Assembly (NCBI GenBank): GCA_965232515.1
Contig: CBDDPY010000002.1
Location: 6,560,001-6,624,000, forward strand
DNA length: 64,000 nucleotides
From: Alphaproteobacteria bacterium
GTDB lineage: Bacteria > Pseudomonadota > Alphaproteobacteria > GCA-2731375
Direction: 5' to 3'
How positions within the stretch are numbered: the first letter of the stretch is position 1; each line of letters begins with the position of its first letter. A program made the position numbers and the translations under genes. Below, piece by piece: positions 37,728-49,261 of the stretch. Below the pieces are notes generated by a model. That model did not search any database. It saw only the letters and a list, made by a program, of their open reading frames with translations, and was not told the origin of the DNA.

Positions 37728-39638
37728 ATGTTGTGTCCCCTGGAGCGTGTGCCGGACCGCGTCGGGAAATGGGGCTGGGTCTGCGCCACGCTGATCATGG
37801 CGGCTTTGGTCGTTTTCGCGGCCAGAACCGAGGCCGCGCAGCCCGACGGCATCGATTTCGGGCGCTACCGTGCACTGGTCATCGGCATCAACGATTATGC
37901 GAACCTGCCGAAGCTGGTCACGGCGGTGAACGACGCCAGCGCCATGCACGACGTGCTGCGCACCCGCTACGGCTTCGATTCCACGCTCCTGCTGAACCCG
38001 AAACGCTACGACCTGATCCGCGCGCTCGACCAGATGCGGGCCGAGCTCACCGAGAACGACAATCTGCTCATTTATTACGCCGGCCACGGCTTCCTCGATC
38101 CCCAGACCGACGACGGTTTCTGGCTGCCGGTCGACGCCGAGGAGAGCAGCACCGCCAACTGGATCGCGGTTGCCGACGTGACCCGGGCGCTGAAGGGCAT
38201 GACCGCCAAGCATGTCCTGATCATCGCCGACTCCTGCTATTCCGGCACCTTGACGCGCGACGTGCCCATCGTGGTCAAGACCGGCAGCGAGCGCCTGGCC
38301 GAGCTGAAGCGCCTGAACGAGAAGCGGGCGCGCAAGGCCATGACCTCGGGCGGGCTCGAGCCGGTAATGGACGGCGGCGGCGACGGCCACTCGGTCTTCA
38401 CCCGGGCGCTGCTCGAGAACCTGCGCGAGAACGGCGACATCCTCGACGGCTATCAGCTCTACGCCCAGCTGCGCCGCTCGGTGGTCGTCAATGCTCAGCA
38501 GACGCCGGAATATTCCGACATCCGCTTTGCCGGCGACGAGGGCGGCGAGTTCCTGTTCGTGCCTGTCGGCCTGCCGGCGCCCGTCGCGGCGACACCGGCG
38601 GCCGGGCCGAGCCCGGCGCCGTCGACCACCACATCGGGACCGAACCAGGCGGCCATGGATCTGGCCTTCTGGCAATCGATCCAGAACAGCGACCGGCCGG
38701 CCGATTTCGAGGCCTATCTGCAGCAGTTCCCAAACGGCACCTTCGCGGCGCTGGCCCGCAACCGCATGGCGGCATTGCAGACGCCCAAGGCGGAACCGAA
38801 GCCGGAAGCGCCGCCACCGGCGCCGCAGCAGCAGGCGGCGCTGACACCGCCCACGGCGCAACCCCCGGCGCCAGCACCCGCCCCGCAGCCCGAAGCCATT
38901 GCGGTCGACATGCTCGACGACACCTATGTGACCATGAAAAACGCGAATGTCCGTGGCGGGCCCGACAGCAGCGCCGATAAGCTGACGACCCTGCCCATGG
39001 GCACCGGTGTCGAGGTCACCGGCAAGGTCAAGGGCAAGAACTGGTACCGGGTCGCGCTGGCCGACGGGCGCACCGGCTACGTCTTCGCGCCGTTGCTGAC
39101 CGAGGCCGGCAGCGGACAGCAGCAGGCCATGGTCTCGGGCAGCGGCATCCGCGCCGTACCGGGCCGCGGCCAACGGGTGTTCCGCATCCAGCCCGTGGTT
39201 TATGACGGCCGGCAGGTCCGCGTCGCCCTCGACATTCTGCGCGCCGGCCTGTCCGGCCTGCCTAACAGCTTCGTGGTCACCGGCGACCGCGGCCAGGCCA
39301 ATCCCGGTGACACCGTCGTCTCGGCGCTGATCTCGCAGCTCAACGTCACGCGCGAACCGAATCCCGAATATACCGGGGCCGCGGTGGTGCGCTCGTTGTT
39401 CGGCAAGCTCGGCCAGACCATGACCGCCAACGTGCCGCAGTTCTTCTCGGTCTACCGGGCGTCGGTCGCCGTGCGTGCGCACGACCTCGCCACCGGCACC
39501 GTCACCAACGAGACCGCCAATGCCGAGATCAAGCTCGACGCAGATTTCCCGACCCGCGACGGCATCGAACTGGCCCTGCAACAGGCGCTGACCGAAGCCA
39601 CCCAGCGCCTCACCGCCCAGATCGGCTTTCAGCGCTAG
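37728..39638 (+). CDS. Exported caspase-like peptidase C14 with SH3b domain (start uncertain)
   Basis: ALVIGINDY, His in YYAGHG, Cys in ADSCYSG; FWQSI..YLQQFPNG helical domain; NVRGGP..WYRV..GYV SH3. Confidence 0.88.
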   Translation: MLCPLERVPDRVGKWGWVCATLIMAALVVFAARTEAAQPDGIDFGRYRALVIGINDYANLPKLVTAVNDASAMHDVLRTRYGFDSTLLLNPKRYDLIRALDQMRAELTENDNLLIYYAGHGFLDPQTDDGFWLPVDAEESSTANWIAVADVTRALKGMTAKHVLIIADSCYSGTLTRDVPIVVKTGSERLAELKRLNEKRARKAMTSGGLEPVMDGGGDGHSVFTRALLENLRENGDILDGYQLYAQLRRSVVVNAQQTPEYSDIRFAGDEGGEFLFVPVGLPAPVAATPAAGPSPAPSTTTSGPNQAAMDLAFWQSIQNSDRPADFEAYLQQFPNGTFAALARNRMAALQTPKAEPKPEAPPPAPQQQAALTPPTAQPPAPAPAPQPEAIAVDMLDDTYVTMKNANVRGGPDSSADKLTTLPMGTGVEVTGKVKGKNWYRVALADGRTGYVFAPLLTEAGSGQQQAMVSGSGIRAVPGRGQRVFRIQPVVYDGRQVRVALDILRAGLSGLPNSFVVTGDRGQANPGDTVVSALISQLNVTREPNPEYTGAAVVRSLFGKLGQTMTANVPQFFSVYRASVAVRAHDLATGTVTNETANAEIKLDADFPTRDGIELALQQALTEATQRLTAQIGFQR

Positions 39639-41866: not shown

Positions 41867-42346
41867 CTAGACGACGCCCCGCTTGTGTTCGCTCACGATC
41901 ACGCGTCCCGGCTCGAATGCCTCGCGCAGCACCGGGATCGCCCGTTCCGGCTCGGCGTCGCCGCACATGAACACGTCAAGCGCCGCGTAGCCGCGTTCCG
42001 GCCAGGTATGGATGCTGATATGAGACTCGGCCAACACGGCGACGCCGGACACGCCGCCCTCGGGACTGAACTTATGCAAATGGATATGCAACAAGGTGGC
42101 CTTGGCGGCATCGACGGCCCGCCTCAGGGCCCTTTCGATCAGCTCGACATCGTCGAGCCCGTTCGCCTGCCACAGATCGACGATGAGGTGGCTGCCGGCA
42201 TAAACAAGACCATTTCGTTCGACGAAATGGTCGCTTTGTGTGGTACTGCCGACGGAACTCGGAAACTTTACGGCTGCAACCTCTGCTCGGGCGGTCATGG
42301 CCTCCGCTTCAGCATTCACCGCGATTTGGGGATGCGTCGTTGACAT
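41867..42346 (-). CDS. speD: S-adenosylmethionine decarboxylase proenzyme (pyruvoyl)
   Basis: GVSGVAVLAESHISIHTWPE with the E-S cleavage site, and DVFMCG. Confidence 0.9.
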   Translation of the reverse strand: MSTTHPQIAVNAEAEAMTARAEVAAVKFPSSVGSTTQSDHFVERNGLVYAGSHLIVDLWQANGLDDVELIERALRRAVDAAKATLLHIHLHKFSPEGGVSGVAVLAESHISIHTWPERGYAALDVFMCGDAEPERAIPVLREAFEPGRVIVSEHKRGVV

Positions 42347-42436
42347 GGTGCAACTCCCTCAAACGCGCGTTGAACCCAAAGGGATAATCCCTCGTTGGTC
42401 TCTCTCCTGCTTCTTTCTCGGAAAGACGAAGGCGGC

Positions 42437-42464
42437 AATCTACGCATCGCGCCTCCGATTGCAA
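42437..42464 (-). promoter_or_regulatory. Putative sigma-70 promoter of speD
   Basis: Minus strand TTGCAA-N16-TAGATT, about 90 nt upstream of the start. Confidence 0.4.
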
Positions 42465-42647
42465 CGGAAAATTGGGGCGCCGAAGCAAAAATCACGCAAG
42501 CTTCATAAAACTGTCATATTCGGCGGAGAATCGGCGGAAACCGGGGCTGAAACCGCGCTCTGATCCGCCGGACGATAAGACGCGATCAATGACACCGTGA
42601 TGTCAGGGCGAACGGCGCGAATTGGTCGCCCCTGTTCGCCACGCCGT

Positions 42648-42716
42648 CGTCATGCTGGCGAAGGCCAGCATCCACAATGGCGCCTGCAATGGACTCTGGC
42701 CTGCGCCAGAGTGACG
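42648..42716. repeat. CGTC-tagged REP-like inverted pair
   Basis: CGTCAT-GCTGGC-GAAG-GCCAGC-ATCCA plus inverted CGTCAC-TCTGGC-GCAG-GCCAGA-GTCCA. Confidence 0.8.
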
Positions 42717-42774
42717 CAACAGATCACTCCTCTCTAATCGCCATGGTAGGTTGCGACTCCGTCTCATCGATCAT

Positions 42775-42828
42775 TATTTCGATATTTCTAGAAATATCGT
42801 TGACAAAACCGGCCGAGCGGGATATCTA
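42775..42828 (+). promoter_or_regulatory. arsR operator 1 and promoter
   Basis: Perfect 20-bp palindrome CGATATTTCTAGAAATATCG (42780-42799) abutting TTGACA-N17-TATCTA. Confidence 0.75.
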
Positions 42829-42834
42829 TCGTCC

Positions 42835-43179
42835 ATGGCAACAACCATGCATCTTCAGAAAGTGGCGAGCTGCCTGGAGGCGCTGGGCAACGAGACCCGG
42901 CTGTCGATCTTCCGGCTGCTCGTGCCCTACGGTCCGAGCGGTCTGTCGGTGGGCGACATCCAAAAGGAGTTGGGCGTGCCCGGGTCGACGCTCTCGCACC
43001 ATCTCTCGCGCCTGGTCTGGGAAGGACTGGTCCGGCAGGAGCGGCAGGGCCGCAGCCTGATGTGCATCGCCGACTTCGAGGCCATGGACGGCATCATCGC
43101 CTTCATGACCAGGGAATGCTGCGTGCTGGCCGATCCGGCCGATGTCGGCGCCTCGAAGAAGACCCCCGAGCCGGCCTGA
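42835..43179 (+). CDS. arsR: ArsR/SmtB repressor with C-terminal vicinal CC
   Basis: ALGNETRLSIFRLLV, STLSHHL, RQGR and FMTRECC. Confidence 0.88.
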   Translation: MATTMHLQKVASCLEALGNETRLSIFRLLVPYGPSGLSVGDIQKELGVPGSTLSHHLSRLVWEGLVRQERQGRSLMCIADFEAMDGIIAFMTRECCVLADPADVGASKKTPEPA

Positions 43180-43195
43180 AAATTTTTTGGCTTCT

Positions 43196-43220
43196 TATTT
43201 CGATAATTCTAGAAATATAG
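43196..43220. promoter_or_regulatory. arsR operator 2
   Basis: TATTTCGATAATTCTAGAAATATAG, 23/25 identical to 42775-42799. Confidence 0.7.
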
Positions 43221-43229
43221 GAATCGAAC

Positions 43230-43463
43230 GTGCTGGCCGAACTCATCAATCAAACGATCGATCTGGCCTGCCAACGCTGGGTGCGGCGGCAGCTTCGCCG
43301 CGAGCTCGAGGCGATGGACGATGCCTTGCTGGACGACATCGGCATCCGACGCAAGGACATCCCGCGTATCGTCGCGGCGACCACGCGCGACCGGCGCGCC
43401 GCGACGCCCGATCCGAACATCCACTGGCTGGATCTCTACCGACGACGAAAGGGTCTGTCATGA
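43230..43463 (+). CDS. DUF1127 (YjiS-like) small Arg-rich protein
   Basis: RRQLRRELEAMDDALLDDIGIRRKDI; stop overlaps the next ATG (ATGA). Confidence 0.8.
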   Translation: MLAELINQTIDLACQRWVRRQLRRELEAMDDALLDDIGIRRKDIPRIVAATTRDRRAATPDPNIHWLDLYRRRKGLS

Positions 43464-44503
43464 CCACGCTAGCGCTCACCCTCAATCAGGTCTCCCGTCG
43501 CGTCGCGGCGTTCGATCGCGTCTGGCTCGGCCTGGCGCTGGCGCTTTTGCTCGGCGTCGCGTTTGCGCCGGACCAGACCGAGCGCAGCCTCATCTTCCTG
43601 GCCGAGGCGCTGCTGCACATCGCGCCGTTCCTCGCCGTTTCGGTGGGCGTTGCCGCCTATGCCGGCGCCAGCGGCGCCGACAATATGATCGCGCGGGTGT
43701 TCCAGGGCGGGCAGGCGCGCATGATCCTGCTCGCCGCTGTTTTCGGCGGCCTGTCGCCGTTCTGCTCCTGCGGCGTCATTCCGCTGATCGCGGCGCTGCT
43801 CGCCATGGGCGTGCCGCTGGCGCCGGTGATGGCGTTCTGGCTGGCGTCGCCGATCATGGACCCGGAGATGTACATTCTGACCGCCGCCGCCATCGGACCC
43901 GGTTTCGCGACGGCCAAGGCCGCCGCCGCCATCGCGCTCGGCCTGTTCGGCGGCTTCGCCACTTTGGCGCTGCAACGTTTGGGCCTGTTCGCCATGCCAC
44001 TCAAGCCCGGCGTCGGCGACGGCGGTTGCGCCGCCGGTTCGGTGCACAGCGACGGCCGCGTCGCCTGGCGTTTCTGGCGGGAGCCCGAGCGCTGGGCGAA
44101 GTTCTGGCGCGACGCCCGCTGGAACGCCCTGTTCCTGGGCAAGTGGCTGGTACTCGCTTTCGTGCTGGAAAGCCTGATGGTCGCCTATGTGCCGGCCGAC
44201 GCCATCGCCACGCTGCTGGGCGGCGACAGCCCGTTCGCGGTGCCGCTCGCCGTCATCGTCGGCGTGCCGGCATACCTCAATGGCTATGCCGCGATCCCGT
44301 TGGTCGGCGGCCTGATCGATCTCGGCATGGCGCCGGCCGCCGGGCTTGCGTTCATGGTCGCCGGCGGCGTCACCAGCGTGCCGGCCGCCATCGCCGTCTT
44401 CGCGCTCGTCCGCACGCCGGTTTTCGCCACCTACATCGCGACGGCGCTCGTCGGCGCCATGCTGGTCGGCCTCACCGCGCTCGCCGTCATGGGAATGTCA
44501 TAG
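43460..44503 (+). CDS. arsP: ArsP/DUF318 permease
   Basis: SPFCSCGVIP, FWLASP, GVPAYLNG; multi-TM; downstream of arsR. Confidence 0.8.
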   Translation: MTTLALTLNQVSRRVAAFDRVWLGLALALLLGVAFAPDQTERSLIFLAEALLHIAPFLAVSVGVAAYAGASGADNMIARVFQGGQARMILLAAVFGGLSPFCSCGVIPLIAALLAMGVPLAPVMAFWLASPIMDPEMYILTAAAIGPGFATAKAAAAIALGLFGGFATLALQRLGLFAMPLKPGVGDGGCAAGSVHSDGRVAWRFWREPERWAKFWRDARWNALFLGKWLVLAFVLESLMVAYVPADAIATLLGGDSPFAVPLAVIVGVPAYLNGYAAIPLVGGLIDLGMAPAAGLAFMVAGGVTSVPAAIAVFALVRTPVFATYIATALVGAMLVGLTALAVMGMS

Positions 44504-44584
44504 ACCGCGCGTCCGACGTCACGTGACCGTCACCTGCCACCGATAAGGTTTTCGAATCGGAAGAACCAATGGGCAGGCAGGATC

Positions 44585-45460
44585 ATGTGGAAGACACTTG
44601 CTTCGATCGCGGCGGTGGCGGCCATGGCGCTGGCCGCCACCGCGGCACAGGCGGACGCTCTCAAGCTTGCCGTCACCGACGTCGAGGGCATGGAGCGGCT
44701 GCAGACCGAATGGGGACCGTTCAAGTCGGCGCTCGAAAAAGCCACCGGCATGACCTTCGAGATGTTCCCCGTCAACAGCCGCACCGCGGCGGCCGAGGCG
44801 CTGCGGGCCGAGCGCATCGACTTCGCCGTCACCGGTCCGGCCGAATATGTCGTCATCAACAAGCTGACCGATGCCAAGCCGCTGATCGGCCTGGGCCGGC
44901 CGGACTATTTTTGCGCCATCATCGTCATGGCCGATTCCGGCATCAACCGGCCCAGGGACCTCAAGGGCAAGAAGGTCGCGTTCTCCGACATCGGCTCGAC
45001 CTCGGGCCATCTCTGCCCGATGCAGCTGTTCAGCGACTACGGCGTCGACCCGACGTCTGACGTCCAGCCCATCCACACCTCGCGCAACGTCATGCACGAG
45101 GCGCTGAAGCGCGGCGACGTTGCCGCCATCGGCTACAACCACAATAGCTGGGTCTCGAAGGCGCGCGACAAGGACAGCTCTGTGCCGCCCGGCGCCTTTA
45201 AAATGATCGCGCGGTCCGGCGACCTGCCGAACGACATGATCATGGTCGGCAGCCATGTCGATCCGGCGCTGGCCGAGAAGGTCCGCGCAGGCATCATCGA
45301 CAACAAGGCGGACGTCATCGCCGGCATTCTGTCGCATGACGAGAACACCAAATACACGGGCATGGACCTGCACGCGATCGAGGACGCGGACTACGACATC
45401 GTCCGGTCCATGTACACGACCGCCGGCTTCCCTCAGTTCGACAAGTTCATCGGCGATTGA
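44585..45460 (+). CDS. phnD: PhnD/PtxB-family phosphate/phosphite/phosphonate-binding protein
   Basis: Signal peptide, GPAEYV, DLKGKKVAF..GSTSGH and LPND. Confidence 0.85.
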   Translation: MWKTLASIAAVAAMALAATAAQADALKLAVTDVEGMERLQTEWGPFKSALEKATGMTFEMFPVNSRTAAAEALRAERIDFAVTGPAEYVVINKLTDAKPLIGLGRPDYFCAIIVMADSGINRPRDLKGKKVAFSDIGSTSGHLCPMQLFSDYGVDPTSDVQPIHTSRNVMHEALKRGDVAAIGYNHNSWVSKARDKDSSVPPGAFKMIARSGDLPNDMIMVGSHVDPALAEKVRAGIIDNKADVIAGILSHDENTKYTGMDLHAIEDADYDIVRSMYTTAGFPQFDKFIGD

Positions 45461-46263
45461 TGGCGCAAGCCGCCCTCGCGGCCCGGTCGGCGGAGGCGCC
45501 GGCTGCCCGCTCGCGGCCCGCGCCGGTCGAGCTCGCGGTCGCCGGCCTCGGTAAGGCGTTCGCGGCCGACACGCCGATCTTCGGGAACGTCTCGTTCGAG
45601 GTGCGGCGGGGCGAGGCGGTGGCGTTGATCGGCGCCAATGGCGCCGGCAAGTCGACCCTGCTGCGCTGTTGCGTCCGCCTGATCGAGCCGACGGCGGGCG
45701 ACGTGCGGCTGTTCGACAGACCGGTGACGGCGGCGTCGCCGCGCCAGCTTCGCCGCCTGCGGGGGCGGATCGGCTTCGTCTTCCAGAAGCACAATCTGGT
45801 GCCGCGGCTGTCGGCGTTGTCGAACGTGCTGCATGGCGCGCTCGCCGACCGCTGGGGTCCGGCCTACTGGTCGCACGCGCTGGCGCCGTCCTCCGCGCGG
45901 GCCCGCGCCATGGCCTCTCTTGAGCGGGTCGGTCTCGCCGACATCGCCGGCCGCCGCGCCGACCGGCTGTCGGGCGGTCAGTCGCAGCGGGTCGCCATCG
46001 CCCGGGCGCTGATGCAGCAGCCCCGCATGATCATGGCCGACGAGCCGGTCGCCAGCCTCGATCCCGCGGCCGGCGAGGATGTGATGCGGCTCTTCGTCTC
46101 GCTGATCCGCGATCAGGGTCTGACCCTGGTCTTCACCTCGCATCACCTGGACCACGCGCTGACCTACGCCGACCGTGTCATTGGCCTGCGCGACGGACGT
46201 CTCGCCGTCGATGCGCCGGCGGCCGAGCTCAGCGCGGCGGCCTTGCGACACATCTATGACTGA
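45460..46263 (+). CDS. phnC: PhnC-like ABC ATPase
   Basis: GANGAGKST, HNLVPRLS, LSGGQSQRVAIAR and DEPVASLDP. Confidence 0.9.
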   Translation: MAQAALAARSAEAPAARSRPAPVELAVAGLGKAFAADTPIFGNVSFEVRRGEAVALIGANGAGKSTLLRCCVRLIEPTAGDVRLFDRPVTAASPRQLRRLRGRIGFVFQKHNLVPRLSALSNVLHGALADRWGPAYWSHALAPSSARARAMASLERVGLADIAGRRADRLSGGQSQRVAIARALMQQPRMIMADEPVASLDPAAGEDVMRLFVSLIRDQGLTLVFTSHHLDHALTYADRVIGLRDGRLAVDAPAAELSAAALRHIYD

Positions 46264-47074
46264 GCTCGCGACCGGCCGTCCGGCCGAGACGCGCGCGGCG
46301 CCGGCGCGCTACGAGCGTCCGAACGCCGTCACATTTATCTTGTACGTGGCCGTCGTCGCCTTCCTCGTCTGGTCCTTCGAGGGCGCCGGCTGGTCCTTTT
46401 CTCAGCTCGGCAGCGGCCTGCCGGCGCTCGGCGATTTTCTGGACCGCGCCTGGCCGCCCAGCCTCGATCGCTTCGACCGCATCGGCGGCGCCGTGCTCGA
46501 AACCTTCCAGATGGCGCTGGTCGGCACGGTCGTCGGCGTCGCGCTCAGCCTGCCGCTCGGCATCCTGGCGGCGCGCGGGCTCGCCGGCCGCTGGGTCAAC
46601 GCCGCGACGCGCGGCTTGATTGCGCTGTTCCGCACCGTGCCCGACCTGGTCTGGGCGCTGATCTTCGTCATCACCGTCGGTCTCGGGCCGTTCGCCGGCA
46701 CGCTCGCCATCGTCGTCGACACCATCGGCTTCTGCGGCCGCTTCTTCGCCGAGGCCATGGAAGACGTCGACAAGGGACCGCAGGAGGCGCTGACAGCCGT
46801 CGGCGCCTCGCGCGTCGACACCATTTTCTGCACGGTCGTCCCCGCGGCGATGCCGGCCTTCGTCACCACGGCGCTGTTCGCGCTCGAGAAATCGACCCGT
46901 TCGTCCGTCGTCCTCGGCCTGGTCGGCGCCGGCGGCATTGGGCTCGAGCTGAAAGTGGCCATGGACCTGTTCGACTATCCGACGGCGATGACCATCATTC
47001 TCTTGATCTTCGCGCTGGTGCTGACGGTCGAGCGCTTTGGCGCGACGTTGCGGCAGCGTATTCTGGCTAACTAA
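46256..47074 (+). CDS. phnE: PhnE-like ABC permease
   Basis: RTVPDLVWALIF, FFAEAME and VLGLVGAGGIG. Confidence 0.9.
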   Translation: MTELATGRPAETRAAPARYERPNAVTFILYVAVVAFLVWSFEGAGWSFSQLGSGLPALGDFLDRAWPPSLDRFDRIGGAVLETFQMALVGTVVGVALSLPLGILAARGLAGRWVNAATRGLIALFRTVPDLVWALIFVITVGLGPFAGTLAIVVDTIGFCGRFFAEAMEDVDKGPQEALTAVGASRVDTIFCTVVPAAMPAFVTTALFALEKSTRSSVVLGLVGAGGIGLELKVAMDLFDYPTAMTIILLIFALVLTVERFGATLRQRILAN

Positions 47075-47090
47075 AGGGGAGGGGACGGTA

Positions 47091-47753
47091 ATGAACGAGA
47101 CGGCAACCGCGCACCGCGCTTGGAACGACCGCTGGCGGACCGCCGAGGGGCGGGCCGACTGGCTCACGCCCGAGGCCGACGTGCTCGACGGCGCCAGGCT
47201 GGTCTGGGACCGCGGTGGCCGGCGGGCGCTCGATCTCGGCTGCGGCGTCGGCCGCCATGCGCTCGCCCTCGCCAGCCTCGGCTTCGAGACATCCGCGCTC
47301 GACGGCAGCGAGGCCGGTATTGCCGAGCTGCGTGCCCAGGCCGAGGCCGCCGATCTCGCCATCGAAACCGGCGTCGGCTTCATGACCGACCTGCCCTATG
47401 CGGACGCCGCCTTCGACTACGTGCTGTCGTTCAACGTGATCTATCACGGCGACGGCGAGATCGTCCGCCGCGCCATCGCCGAGATCCGCCGCGTGCTGAA
47501 GCCGGGCGGCATCTACCAGGGCACTATGCTGTCGAAACGCAACGCCAACCATGGCGTCGGCACCGAGGTCGCGCCCCACACCTTCGTCCGCGACGGCGAT
47601 GGCGACAAGGACCACCCCCACTTCTACTGCAACGCCGCCGAGCTGGTCGCCCTTTTCGCCGATTTCGAGCTGCTCTCCCTCATCGATCGCGAGCACAGCA
47701 AACCCGGCTCCTGGCACTGGCACCTCCTCGCCGAACACAAACAATTCCGGTGA
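47091..47753 (+). CDS. Class I SAM-dependent methyltransferase
   Basis: LDLGCGVGRH, FDYVLSFNVIYH and RVLKPGG; strong GGGGAGGGG RBS. Confidence 0.9.
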   Translation: MNETATAHRAWNDRWRTAEGRADWLTPEADVLDGARLVWDRGGRRALDLGCGVGRHALALASLGFETSALDGSEAGIAELRAQAEAADLAIETGVGFMTDLPYADAAFDYVLSFNVIYHGDGEIVRRAIAEIRRVLKPGGIYQGTMLSKRNANHGVGTEVAPHTFVRDGDGDKDHPHFYCNAAELVALFADFELLSLIDREHSKPGSWHWHLLAEHKQFR

Positions 47754-47767
47754 CAGTAACCATAACT
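47743..47767 (+). repeat. 25-nt imperfect palindromic repeat AATTCCGGTGACAGTAACCATAACT
   Basis: Same unit recurs three times at 54019-54130. Confidence 0.75.
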
Positions 47768-47804
47768 CTGTTGCCTGAAGCCGAAGGTCACGACAGGTCG
47801 GTTT

Positions 47805-47927
47805 TCACCTCGAAGACACAAAGACACCAAGAGTCAAAACATCCAGCAGCCGTGCCGCTGGTCATCGCGCGACACGGGCTTGGCGTCTCGCCCGCGTGAT
47901 CTTGGTGTCTTCGCGCCTTTGTGGTGA
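47805..47927. repeat. Inverted repeat built from 8-nt AAGACACN periods
   Basis: Arms 47805-47832 and 47900-47927 are near reverse complements. Confidence 0.75.
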
Positions 47928-48008
47928 TCCTTCCCCGCGTTCGCGGATGCCAATGAACGCGCCGGTGAAATACGCTAGTCTGCCGGCGTGACAGGCGGAG
48001 GTTCTCGG

Positions 48009-48500
48009 ATGACAGTCACGGTACGGCCGGCCACGGTCGACGACTTGGCCGCGTTGATCGAAATGGCGCGTGCGCTGATCGTCCAGCACGGCAAGTCGAC
48101 CGAATACCTGACCGCCGAGGCGCTGCGCCGCGACGCCTTTGGGCCCGACGCCGACGTGCAGATCGTCATCGCCGAGCTTGACGGCGCCGCCGCCGGTTTC
48201 GCGCTCTATCACGACGCCTACGAGTCGGACTATGCCGCCCGCGGCGTCTATGTCTGCGATATTTTTGTTGCGGAAGCCGCGCGCCGGCATGGGCTCGGCC
48301 GCGCCCTGATGGCCGCCGTCGCCCGCGACGCCAAATCCCGCGGCCGCACCTTCCTCTGGTGGGCGTCACAGCCCTGGAACAAAGACGCCGTCGCCTTCTA
48401 CGACAGCATCGGCGCCATTACCGAGCCGGTGAACGCGCACGCGCTCACCTTCGAGCATTTCGAGACGCTGGCCCGGGAAGCGGATCAGTCCGACGTGTAG
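48009..48500 (+). CDS. GNAT N-acetyltransferase (diamine acetyltransferase-like)
   Basis: DIFVAEAARRHGLGRALM and N..AVAFY..IG. Confidence 0.88.
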   Translation: MTVTVRPATVDDLAALIEMARALIVQHGKSTEYLTAEALRRDAFGPDADVQIVIAELDGAAAGFALYHDAYESDYAARGVYVCDIFVAEAARRHGLGRALMAAVARDAKSRGRTFLWWASQPWNKDAVAFYDSIGAITEPVNAHALTFEHFETLAREADQSDV

Positions 48501-49261
48501 TCGATGTCGTCGGCGGGCAGGTGGCGCCAGCTTGTGCCCTGCGCGCGTTCCTCCAGGTAATGGGCGGCAAGGCTGACCGAGCGCGGCGTGATCAGAAAGG
48601 CGCGGGCGGCCTGCCAGGGAAAACCGAGGTCGAGGATAACAGCGGCGATGACGCCATCAAGATTCATCGGGACCGCCCGGCCCGCTGCCGTTTCGACCGC
48701 CCGCTCGATCAACCGCGCGAGGCGGCAGTAACGGCCGAACACGCCCTCGGCCGCGGCGATCTCCAGCAGCTTCGGCGCCCGCGGGTCGGCGCCGTGCAGC
48801 GGGATGCCGAAGCCCGGCACGCGGTCGCCGGCCGCCCGCGCGTCGGCGACAACCGCCCGCGCCGCCGCTTCCAGGCCATCGTCCGTCTCGTCCGCCGGCA
48901 TCGCGTCCGTCAGCAGCTTCGCGAACTGCTCGCCGGCGCCGCCCATGACGTCGCCGAAGGCGAGGATGCCGCCGGCCATCGCCGCCTGGATCGTCGTGCC
49001 GTAGGAGGCGAAGCAGCGCGCGATCATCGACGGCGGCGCAATGCCGTGCTCCATGGAGGCCACCAGCAGCGCGTCCAGCGTCCGCGCCTGCGCCGGGTCC
49101 GGCCGCCGCCCGCTCAACAGCAGAAACATCATCTCCGCGAAAGAGACGTTGCCGACGAGGTCGCTCAGCCGCTCGCCTCGCACCACCACCTCTTCGGCGG
49201 CCACGTCGCTGACCACCCGCGCGATGCCGGTCCGCCAATGCCGCATGTCATCGCCGCTCAT
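48485..49261 (-). CDS. Citryl-CoA lyase / citrate synthase-like protein
   Basis: WRTGI, EHG..PS, VPGFG..H..DPR and MNLDG; GGAGG RBS. Confidence 0.8.
   Translation of the reverse strand: MSGDDMRHWRTGIARVVSDVAAEEVVVRGERLSDLVGNVSFAEMMFLLLSGRRPDPAQARTLDALLVASMEHGIAPPSMIARCFASYGTTIQAAMAGGILAFGDVMGGAGEQFAKLLTDAMPADETDDGLEAAARAVVADARAAGDRVPGFGIPLHGADPRAPKLLEIAAAEGVFGRYCRLARLIERAVETAAGRAVPMNLDGVIAAVILDLGFPWQAARAFLITPRSVSLAAHYLEERAQGTSWRHLPADDIDYTSD

Follow-up and report, generated by a model that had tools for sequence, protein, structure and literature searches.

A lineage-specific junction of an arsR-permease unit with a phnDCE-methyltransferase cassette in an alphaproteobacterium: a possible miniature arsenic island

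We analyzed 64,000 nucleotides (nt) of contig CBDDPY010000002.1 (positions 6,560,001 to 6,624,000) from an alphaproteobacterium of the GTDB lineage GCA-2731375 (assembly GCA_965232515.1). We refer to this whole stretch as the window, and coordinates are positions within it. Seven genes on its + strand, from 42835 to 47753, encode an ArsR-type repressor, a small DUF1127 protein, a permease of the PF03773/ArsP_1 family, the three components of a PhnDCE-type ATP-binding cassette (ABC) importer, and a methyltransferase. A prediction that was made from the sequence beforehand (the original prediction) took these genes for one candidate undescribed module. It had the genes right, as we confirmed all seven open reading frames (ORFs) with their families and positions, but as explained below, they do not form a conserved module.

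The repressor gene, arsR (42835-43179; 114 amino acids, aa), scores 61.4 bits with NF033788 (cut-off 55) and 33.5 bits with PF01022 (cut-off 22). The DUF1127 gene (43230-43463; 77 aa) matches PF06568 over residues 13-44 (38.9 bits against a cut-off of 23.3, E = 7.2e-10), and the permease gene (43460-44503; 347 aa) scores 106.4 bits with PF03773 against a cut-off of 32.3. The periplasmic binding protein of the PhnD family (44585-45460; 291 aa, with a signal peptide) reaches 129.7 bits with TIGR01098 (cut-off 112.05). By far the top match of the phnC-type ATPase (45457-46263) is TIGR02315, at 257.1 bits, slightly below its cut-off of 266.1, and the phnE-type ABC permease (about 46256-47074) scores 265.9 bits with TIGR01097 (cut-off 216.7). 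The last gene (47091-47753; 220 aa) encodes a class I S-adenosylmethionine (SAM) methyltransferase, going by its Pfam and NCBIfam family match. The genes are closely packed: gaps of 50, 81, and 16 nt separate arsR from the DUF1127 gene, the permease gene from phnD, and phnE from the methyltransferase gene, whereas the DUF1127 gene overlaps the permease gene by 4 nt, phnD overlaps phnC by 4 nt, and phnC overlaps phnE by 8 nt. Pfam was run on 67 ORFs of the window (outside the locus, those of at least 100 aa), and none of them belongs to the families of arsC, acr3/arsB, arsH, arsM, carbon-phosphorus (C-P) lyase, or ptxD, in agreement with the original prediction.

The ArsR protein has a vicinal cysteine pair, Cys95-Cys96, near its C-terminus, and no cysteine in residues 97-114. 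Its closest solved relative is AfArsR of Acidithiobacillus ferrooxidans (PDB 6j05, E = 1.2e-15), which responds to As(III), and the pair aligns with the CC pair of that protein. The site of AfArsR consists of Cys95, Cys96, and Cys102; the window's ArsR lacks the third, downstream cysteine. A two-cysteine ArsR from Shewanella is selective for methylarsenite, and binding of methylarsenite could still occur at a site with two cysteines. Models of sulfite and other sensors also match the window's ArsR, weakly.

Two copies of a 24-nt repeat, identical at 23 of 24 bases, flank arsR. The first, O1 (42774-42797), has the palindromic core CGATATTTCTAGAAATATCG and abuts a TTGACA hexamer at 42800; the second, O2 (43195-43218), lies 11 nt ahead of the start of the DUF1127 gene. 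The operator pattern occurs exactly twice in the 64 kb, as compared to 0.00 times expected (100 shuffles), which bears out the two operators that had been proposed earlier. A scan of the whole window for this pattern found no copy ahead of phnD. The putative promoter hexamers near O1 were read by eye, and a scan for sigma-70 promoters from 42300 to 48600 returned 0 promoters. Because the predicted palindromic operators lie at the putative promoters of both arsR and the downstream genes, the pairing of arsR with its operators appears to fit autoregulation.

The permease belongs to the same family as ArsP of Campylobacter jejuni, a methylarsenite efflux permease (PMC6205960), and like that protein it is paired with arsR. 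We assign the window's protein by family, not by orthology. Across 29 sequences of the permease family, the motifs PFCSCG (C102 and C104) and GDGGC (C190) are invariant, and in the family alignment a third invariant cysteine in addition to CxC is compatible with ArsP. A literature search on ArsP with vicinal cysteine gave no match.

The contexts of the permease's relatives come from plasmids: 13 records cover at least 80% of the permease, and we considered 8 of these, together with two others (H20 and H23). The seven closest records are 52-60% identical to the window's permease. Two of these (H6 and H7, both 52%) are unannotated, and the five that we examined are 55-60% identical. In all five, the permease gene is preceded by an arsR whose product has the same ..ECC.. 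C-terminus as the window's; none of the five has a DUF1127 gene; and in three (L082-L084), an O2-related element, AATTCYGGARATWTAG, lies directly ahead of the permease start. Operator-like elements precede both arsR and the permease gene, as they do in the window. Also, pstSCAB adjoins the pair in two of the five. On pORIO3 of Cereibacter azotoformans, the order is pstSCAB-phoU-phoB-arsR-permease, and the surrounding island contains arsRDA-acr3-arsC and an arx-type oxidoreductase cluster; on a Pseudosulfitobacter plasmid, pstSCAB is divergent from the arsR-permease pair. The closest annotated relative of the permease is within an ars/arx island, a relative at 38.6% identity sits in an aio island, and more distant ones are found in ars operons. 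Since the plasmid loci have arsR-permease with an O2-like element and without DUF1127, we consider O1-arsR-O2-permease to be the ancestral unit. By this comparison, the DUF1127 gene is apparently a later insertion between O2 and the permease gene in the window's lineage. These pairs, which are from Rhodobacterales, also differ from the window in their partners, which are pst or an ArsK-like transporter of the major facilitator superfamily (MFS) instead of phnDCE-methyltransferase.

Two other observations concern these plasmids. First, in two plasmid loci, the ArsK-like MFS gene (207-212 bits) follows arsR-permease. We considered whether its product is the orthologue of the ArsK-like MFS protein of the phn loci that are described below, but the two are just 31-35% identical and share the broad family only. 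Second, a plasmid of Agrobacterium salinitolerans (L086, NZ_CP074400.1, 5917-7130) has a PF03773 permease (39.5% identity) that is paired with a LysR gene and is followed by an overlapping gene for a DUF1127 protein of 65 aa. This gene order is the reverse of the window's, so the pairing of permease and DUF1127 recurs.

It could be that the first three genes have nothing to do with arsenic, and that ArsR senses another thiophilic or redox signal while the permease moves another substrate. We think that this is quite unlikely, given that the best solved relative of ArsR responds to As(III) and has its CC pair aligned with ours, that relatives of the permease are found in an ars/arx island, an aio island, and ars operons, and that three cysteines of the permease are invariant. 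Some of the evidence does lean the other way. The permease family numbers 6517 hits, and the name ArsP is absent from the 120 relatives among the matches listed, which are called permease or YraQ/UPF0718; the top NCBIfam matches of the permease are the Cu/Zn efflux protein SO_0444 and SaoE, at 65 bits, far under their cut-offs; and no arsenic genes are nearby in two of the plasmid loci (L084 and L085). The weak matches of ArsR to sulfite and other sensors would also be as expected if the signal were not arsenic.

The other four genes have a different history. We surveyed one genome per species, using an alignment of 19 sequences from the subfamily of the binding protein as the query, and kept the best 80 of 205 relatives. 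(Relatives that pass the thresholds number 1949 for PhnD and 2337 for the methyltransferase.) After phnD, there is a phnC in 76 of the 80 loci and a phnE in 75. In 72 loci, the sequence extends at least 750 nt past phnE, and the methyltransferase gene comes directly after phnE in 68 of these; the four exceptions (L021, L023, L049, and L056) have phnM there. Similarly, 72 loci have at least 1300 nt upstream, and in just one of these are arsR, DUF1127, and permease genes beside the cassette. This locus, L001, is a 3.3-kb contig from an alphaproteobacterial metagenome-assembled genome, and its PhnD is 93% identical to the window's. The four-gene cassette is ancient and widespread, and among the loci examined, its junction with ars-type genes is confined to the window's lineage. 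The idea of a single seven-gene module is not supported by this result.

The cassette's usual company points to phosphorus nutrition. At least one marker of a C-P lyase cluster (PhnI, PhnJ, PhnM, a GntR/UTRA regulator, the TIGR03308 hexapeptide transferase, or a canonical phnCDEE) is present in 70 of 80 loci. Among the 66 loci with sufficient sequence, 47 have phnM directly after the methyltransferase gene, and it encodes a PhnM-type amidohydrolase (NF011987, 357.6 bits against 253). Several loci have a second PhnM beside PhnI and PhnJ, and therefore the cassette's PhnM is a paralogue. A TIM-barrel (AP_endonuc_2) gene is found in 23 loci. In 16 loci, an MFS gene comes after phnM (L025, L029, L035, L036, L040, L044-L046, L059, L060, L066, L072, L076, L077, L079, and L080), and its product has a sole strong NCBIfam match, to the arsenite exporter ArsK, which at 291.6 bits falls short of the cut-off (400). 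Another such gene is on plasmid pSMR1-5 of Pseudosulfitobacter (L092, 13845-15083). With the ArsK-like MFS gene after phnM, this importer is paired with an arsenic-type exporter family for a second time, independently.

The cassette is also found elsewhere. Its four genes stand alone amid unrelated genes in two Mesorhizobium loci (L061 and L071) and in L014 and L016. On pSMR1-5, which is a mobilizable plasmid (NZ_CP022420.1, 8510-16591), IS5 transposases bracket phnDCE-methyltransferase-phnM-MFS-isomerase, and the bracketed block adjoins a ptx-like cluster of phnCDE, an oxidoreductase gene, and a LysR gene; by its appearance, the seven-gene block is mobile as a unit. Among the 10 plasmid records that match the window's PhnD, none is an arsenic-island plasmid. 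The same order, phnD-phnC-phnE-methyltransferase, is seen in island fGIphn-A of HIMB59, where these genes are drawn as auxiliary to the C-P lyase genes of the island, with no function assigned to the methyltransferase (PMC10734472). As compared to the marine C-P lyase islands, the window has the first four genes only, without the phnM paralogue, the MFS gene, or the TIM-barrel gene, and without C-P lyase within the 64 kb.

The binding protein has low similarity to the phosphite-binding protein PtxB of Pseudomonas stutzeri (E = 8.5e-21), to GpxB (2.5e-10), and to E. coli PhnD (1.4e-08). Its TIGR01098 score and its head-group residues place it in the PhnT-type family with PtxB, HtxB, PhnD, and GpxB; it shares their fold and keeps the residues for the phosphorus oxyanion. 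The hinge residue Tyr108 and Ser138-Thr139-Ser140 are kept and are invariant in the 19 sequences of the subfamily (the roles of these residues are as described in PMC5700983). In PtxB, a capping tyrosine keeps out larger ligands and gives specificity for phosphite, with a P-H...pi contact (PMC5700983), and this barrier is reported to be lost as the tail of the ligand grows, as in PhnD and in the glycerol-phosphate binder GpxB (PMC12718374). In our protein, SGDLPNDM aligns with SGEYPQYP of PtxB, so the capping tyrosine is missing, and an invariant Arg167 takes the place of His155. We rejected two more specific identities. A phosphite binder of the PtxB type does not fit with the absence of the capping tyrosine, the change of histidine to Arg167, and the lack of ptxD among the scanned ORFs of the window; and an E. 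coli-type PhnD would be expected to score above 261.1 bits with TIGR03431, while this protein scores 97.4. We infer that the ligand is probably a tailed organophosphorus compound and not phosphite. There are also weak matches to a putative selenate-binding model (59 bits against 250) and to ArrX (E = 2.2e-08).

The methyltransferase is harder to place. Its predicted structure (pLDDT, the predicted local distance difference test, of 94) is most similar to an uncharacterized enzyme from Clostridium (2p8j), with template modeling (TM) scores of 0.81/0.86; TehB of E. coli (2xva) follows at 0.65/0.73, and others are at 0.65-0.73. Within the family, H175, H177, C180, H209, and W210 are invariant and H211 is nearly so, and this set of histidines and cysteine is absent from 2p8j. 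These residues cluster on two adjacent C-terminal strands and may form a site for a metal or an oxyanion. The protein shares the class I small-molecule methyltransferase fold with TehB, and it has a partial match to the TehB family of Pfam (E = 7.7e-12), but the match spans residues 29-141 only and the HxH..C..HWH set lies outside it. The TehB models score 45-47 bits against cut-offs of 218-303, so we rejected this identity. We also rejected ArsM: the models of that name (NF040539, NF041537, NF041536, and NF008823) give 21-38 bits, far from their cut-offs of 240-575, and C180 is the only invariant cysteine outside motif I. The ESM Atlas returned generic class I methyltransferase clusters only, and on the function of a phn-linked methyltransferase, our literature search found just the drawing of the HIMB59 island.

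The original prediction had offered an alternative in which an organoarsenical or another metalloid oxyanion is imported, methylated, and exported. Arsenate, methylarsonate, selenate, or tellurite would enter by PhnDCE and be methylated by the methyltransferase, and the product would leave through the permease. This now seems highly unlikely. The cassette has C-P lyase markers nearby in 70 of 80 loci and Pho-box-like sites (described below) in 70 of 77 upstream regions, which indicates nutrition and not detoxification; the residues that bind phosphorus oxyanions, Tyr108 and Ser-Thr-Ser, are invariant; and the methyltransferase is far under the cut-offs for ArsM and TehB and has a single invariant cysteine outside motif I. 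What could be said for a metalloid substrate is that the methyltransferase has a TehB-like fold and the partial TehB match, that some databases label its relatives as tellurite methyltransferases, that the binding protein weakly matches the selenate-binding model and ArrX, and that an ArsK-like MFS gene follows the cassette in 16 loci. A literature search for a tie between methylarsonate and phosphonate transporters found no such link among the papers listed.

How might the cassette be regulated? A Pho box is a pair of 11-nt units that both contain a conserved 7-mer (in E. coli, for example, CTGTCAT), and PhoB-dependent promoters have at least two 11-nt direct repeats upstream of the -10 element (PMC4415409). 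The regions upstream of phnD in the relatives contain direct repeats of this type with an 11-nt period. Our first, strict motif (GTCA-N6/7-GTCA) was found in just 10 of 81 upstream regions, and we then used a looser pattern and a matrix. The pattern [GT]TCA[CT]-N6-[GT]TCA[CT] is present in 23 of the 81 regions, at -100 to -56, and in 0 of 81 coding controls (the mean for shuffled sequences is 0.17). The matrix was trained on phnD upstream regions with the window's lineage left out; 70 of 77 regions score above the 95th percentile of the coding controls, and 46 score above the maximum of the controls. In the window, there are two Pho-box-like sites ahead of phnD on the + strand (44485-44537): GTCATGGGAATGTCAT at -99, which overlaps the stop codon of the permease gene (10.4 bits, at 44485), and GTCACGTGACCGTCAC at -67 (7.3 bits, at 44517). 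These are at the usual distance, as in the relatives, and both are kept in L001.

The strongest site is not there, but upstream of arsR. Three 11-nt Pho-box-like repeats, AATCACGCAAG CTTCATAAAA CTGTCATATTC, were found with the matrix at 42490-42521 on the + strand, facing arsR, 314 nt upstream of its ATG. Here CTTCATAAAACTGTCATATTC at 42501 scores 18.3 bits, which is the top site on either strand of the 64 kb, and the site at 42490 scores 10.6 bits. The number of sites with at least 18 bits that is expected by chance is 0.0 (30 random sequences). Window-wide, six sites score at least 10 bits, compared to 2.8 expected, and three of the six are in the arsR-methyltransferase locus. The arsR-upstream site has 31 of 32 bases the same in L001, and a GAGAAT hexamer, noticed by eye, lies 8 nt past it. 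Judging from these motifs, the ars-type genes may also see PhoB.

Some features of these noncoding regions are worth describing in their own right. The first 199 nt of the 488-nt intergenic region between speD and arsR (42347-42545) are 91% identical (181/199) to positions 74-270 of L001, which is about the level of the coding genes. This segment holds the strong Pho-box-like site, and it may also hold the leader of the divergent AdoMet (S-adenosylmethionine) decarboxylase/ornithine decarboxylase operon; the fold of the speD-side leader is unremarkable (z = -0.67). The next ~230 nt, up to O1, do not align with L001, which is about 115 nt shorter there. An inverted repeat, TGACACCGTGATGTCA, at 42590-42605 lies between the upstream Pho-like site and O1, and L001 keeps a copy with one change. 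Ahead of phnD, 27 of 81 loci, all of the Rhodobacterales type (L025-L080; for example L025, L043, and L070), have a palindrome, TCATYCGRAYGA with core TTCATTCGAATGAA, that lies ~28 nt upstream of the gene, ahead of the ribosome-binding site. It might bind a repressor or form a hairpin in the leader. The window's counterpart is a weak TTTTCGAATCGGAA only. No Rfam family matches at the gathering level anywhere in the window; at E <= 1, there is just a chance-level match to Xoo5 (E = 0.54) in 42250-42900 and nothing in 44400-44700.

Are the two groups of genes merely neighbors? The cassette might be controlled by PhoB only and arsR-DUF1127-permease by ArsR only, in which case their adjacency would have no selective meaning. 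The adjacency is seen in 1 of 72 loci, the cassette occurs in many unrelated contexts, no operator copy lies ahead of phnD, and the gap between the permease gene and phnD has its own Pho-like sites, all of which is what mere neighbors would look like. The original prediction had itself named two findings that would tell against it: that the adjacency is unique to this genome, and that the cassette is transcribed separately under PhoB only. The first is nearly what we see in silico; on the second, what we see is Pho-like repeats in the gap at the same distance as in the relatives. Nevertheless, we regard mere adjacency as unlikely. The 81-nt gap has no terminator-like site or strong hairpin (its fold, with a z of -1.11, is unremarkable), and therefore read-through from the O2 promoter into the cassette is possible. 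The top Pho-like site of the window lies upstream of arsR, not ahead of phnD. And arsenic-type exporters recur next to phosphorus uptake genes, with pstSCAB in two of the five plasmid loci and the ArsK-like MFS gene after phnM in 16 loci. With a strong Pho-like site upstream of arsR and nothing like a terminator between the permease gene and phnD, joint expression of the two units during phosphorus starvation and arsenic stress is probable.

The DUF1127 gene may be another connection between the two units. It has a GTG start, it encodes an arginine-rich protein, and its stop codon overlaps the ATG of the permease gene (ATGA). It has diverged more than its neighbors: between the window and L001, the protein is 72% identical, with 14 codons that have synonymous changes only and 22 that change the residue, as compared to 90-93% for the three other genes compared. 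Among 1.84 billion proteins, there are two other full-length representatives of this 77-aa protein, with 81% and 58% identity, and the remaining matches are DUF1127 proteins with multiple repeats. In Agrobacterium and E. coli, small DUF1127 proteins are reported to bind PhoR and to damp the genes for phosphate uptake (PMC12501420, 2025), and an older report describes RNA binding by DUF1127 protein(s) (PMC8034643). The window's protein has the domain in common with those of A. tumefaciens and with YjiS of E. coli, but it is 77 aa long with a C-terminal extension, its gene follows a putative ArsR operator and is coupled to that of a permease, and there is no PhoR in the window. By analogy, an ArsR-gated DUF1127 protein that is made along with the exporter might bind PhoR and lower the expression of PhoB-driven importers, including phnDCE, and so relay arsenic sensing to the phosphate regulon. 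This is an attractive idea, but we consider it rather improbable.

Putting this together, we favor, with modest confidence, the view that two older transcription units were joined at this locus, in this lineage only, and act together like a miniature arsenic island. In the first unit (O1-arsR-O2-DUF1127-permease, 42774-44503), ArsR would repress its own promoter and the DUF1127-permease promoter via O1 and O2. A trivalent arsenical that binds at Cys95-Cys96 would release ArsR, and the permease would then export the arsenical that was sensed. The DUF1127 protein, which is probably coupled to the permease in translation, may tune the phosphate response as the PhoR-binding DUF1127 proteins do. 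The second unit (Pho boxes-phnD-phnC-phnE-methyltransferase, 44485-47753) is a widespread cassette of marine and soil Alphaproteobacteria that is normally found in C-P lyase islands; it would serve in phosphorus starvation and import an organophosphorus oxyanion other than phosphite.

Several points weigh against this view. First, that arsenic is the effector is suggested by family resemblance and by the contexts of relatives; the window's permease and the PF03773 permease that a Klebsiella ars operon encodes share just 26% identity, and the relatives of the window's permease do not go by the name ArsP, as mentioned above. Second, the contexts of the permease come from plasmids only, and the survey of the cassette kept 80 of 205 relatives with one genome per species. 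Third, the two Pho-like sites ahead of phnD are above the 95th percentile of the controls (5.0 bits) but below the maximum of the controls (13.4 bits), while the strongest Pho-like site, upstream of arsR, fits one integrated, Pho-driven array as well as it fits two units. Finally, base composition gives no signal of separate origins across the seven genes: the GC content at third codon positions is 0.87-0.90 in six of the seven, and 0.78 in the DUF1127 gene.

If the two units do act together, there is precedent for it. Of 21 arsenic islands, 10 have pst1 and 6 have phn1 (PMC3834237). In Agrobacterium tumefaciens 5A, pst/pho/phn1 genes lie beside ars1, are induced by As(III), and are constitutive without ArsR1 (PMC7965956). 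The rationale given in this literature is that phosphorus can be taken up selectively under arsenic stress. As in A. tumefaciens 5A, the window has a resistance unit that appears to be controlled by ArsR and that adjoins a phosphate/phosphonate ABC importer. Arsenic islands have been recognized by ars genes beside a pst or phn operon (PMC3834237), and here arsR-permease is directly upstream of phnDCE, with the classical ars genes and the aio genes absent. Unlike A. tumefaciens 5A and the arsenic islands, the window has no aio, arsC, acr3, or arsH, and its exporter is a PF03773 permease. Its importer is of the marine type, phnDCE-methyltransferase, with no ArsR operator ahead of it, and it has a DUF1127 gene under an operator, which also sets it apart from the arsenic islands. 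An arsenic-coupled import of phosphorus, as originally proposed, remains plausible, as read-through is possible without a terminator; as a theme it is not new, going by what PMC3834237 and PMC7965956 describe. The locus looks like a small and recently assembled variant of a known arsenic/phosphorus arrangement, not a new kind of system, and its seven-gene order is not conserved.

The window has other features as well. After the methyltransferase gene, there is a 234-nt gap that contains a 28-nt inverted repeat (47805-47832 and 47900-47927, 82% complementary, with a spacer of 67 nt) and a terminator-like hairpin on the - strand (47861-47843). The GNAT gene beyond it (47988-48500) was considered as an ArsN-like member of the locus and was rejected, with 29.8 bits for ArsN1 against a cut-off of 170 and a relative in 0 of 80 loci. 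From 111 to 25908, there is a large exopolysaccharide locus of the exosortase (EpsH) type, with glycosyltransferases, Wzz/GNVR and Poly_export proteins, a polysaccharide deacetylase with DUF3473, an asparagine synthase, a GAF histidine kinase, a sigma-54 activator, and a TPR protein of 940 aa. Also, a gene at 37728-39638 encodes a protein of 636 aa in which a caspase-like Peptidase_C14 domain at the N-terminus is combined with a proline-rich linker and a bacterial SH3 domain.

Whatever the fate of our preferred reading, the phnDCE-methyltransferase cassette, often with a phnM paralogue, an ArsK-like MFS gene, and a TIM-barrel gene, is widespread and unstudied, and it represents a gap in the marine phosphonate cycle. 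The locus itself is a compact test bed: a single repressor with two operators, a single exporter, a single importer, and Pho-box-like sites on either side. Its DUF1127 gene is placed where the work on PhoR binding by DUF1127 proteins would make it an element of cross-talk. If that were true, then the uptake of arsenical look-alikes would stop as export starts, and we would have the first known case of a small protein that connects metalloid sensing with phosphate signaling. Arsenate and organoarsenicals enter cells via phosphorus transporters. Because of this, a coupling of phosphorus scavenging to arsenic defense would bear on growth in waters and soils that are low in phosphate and contain arsenic.

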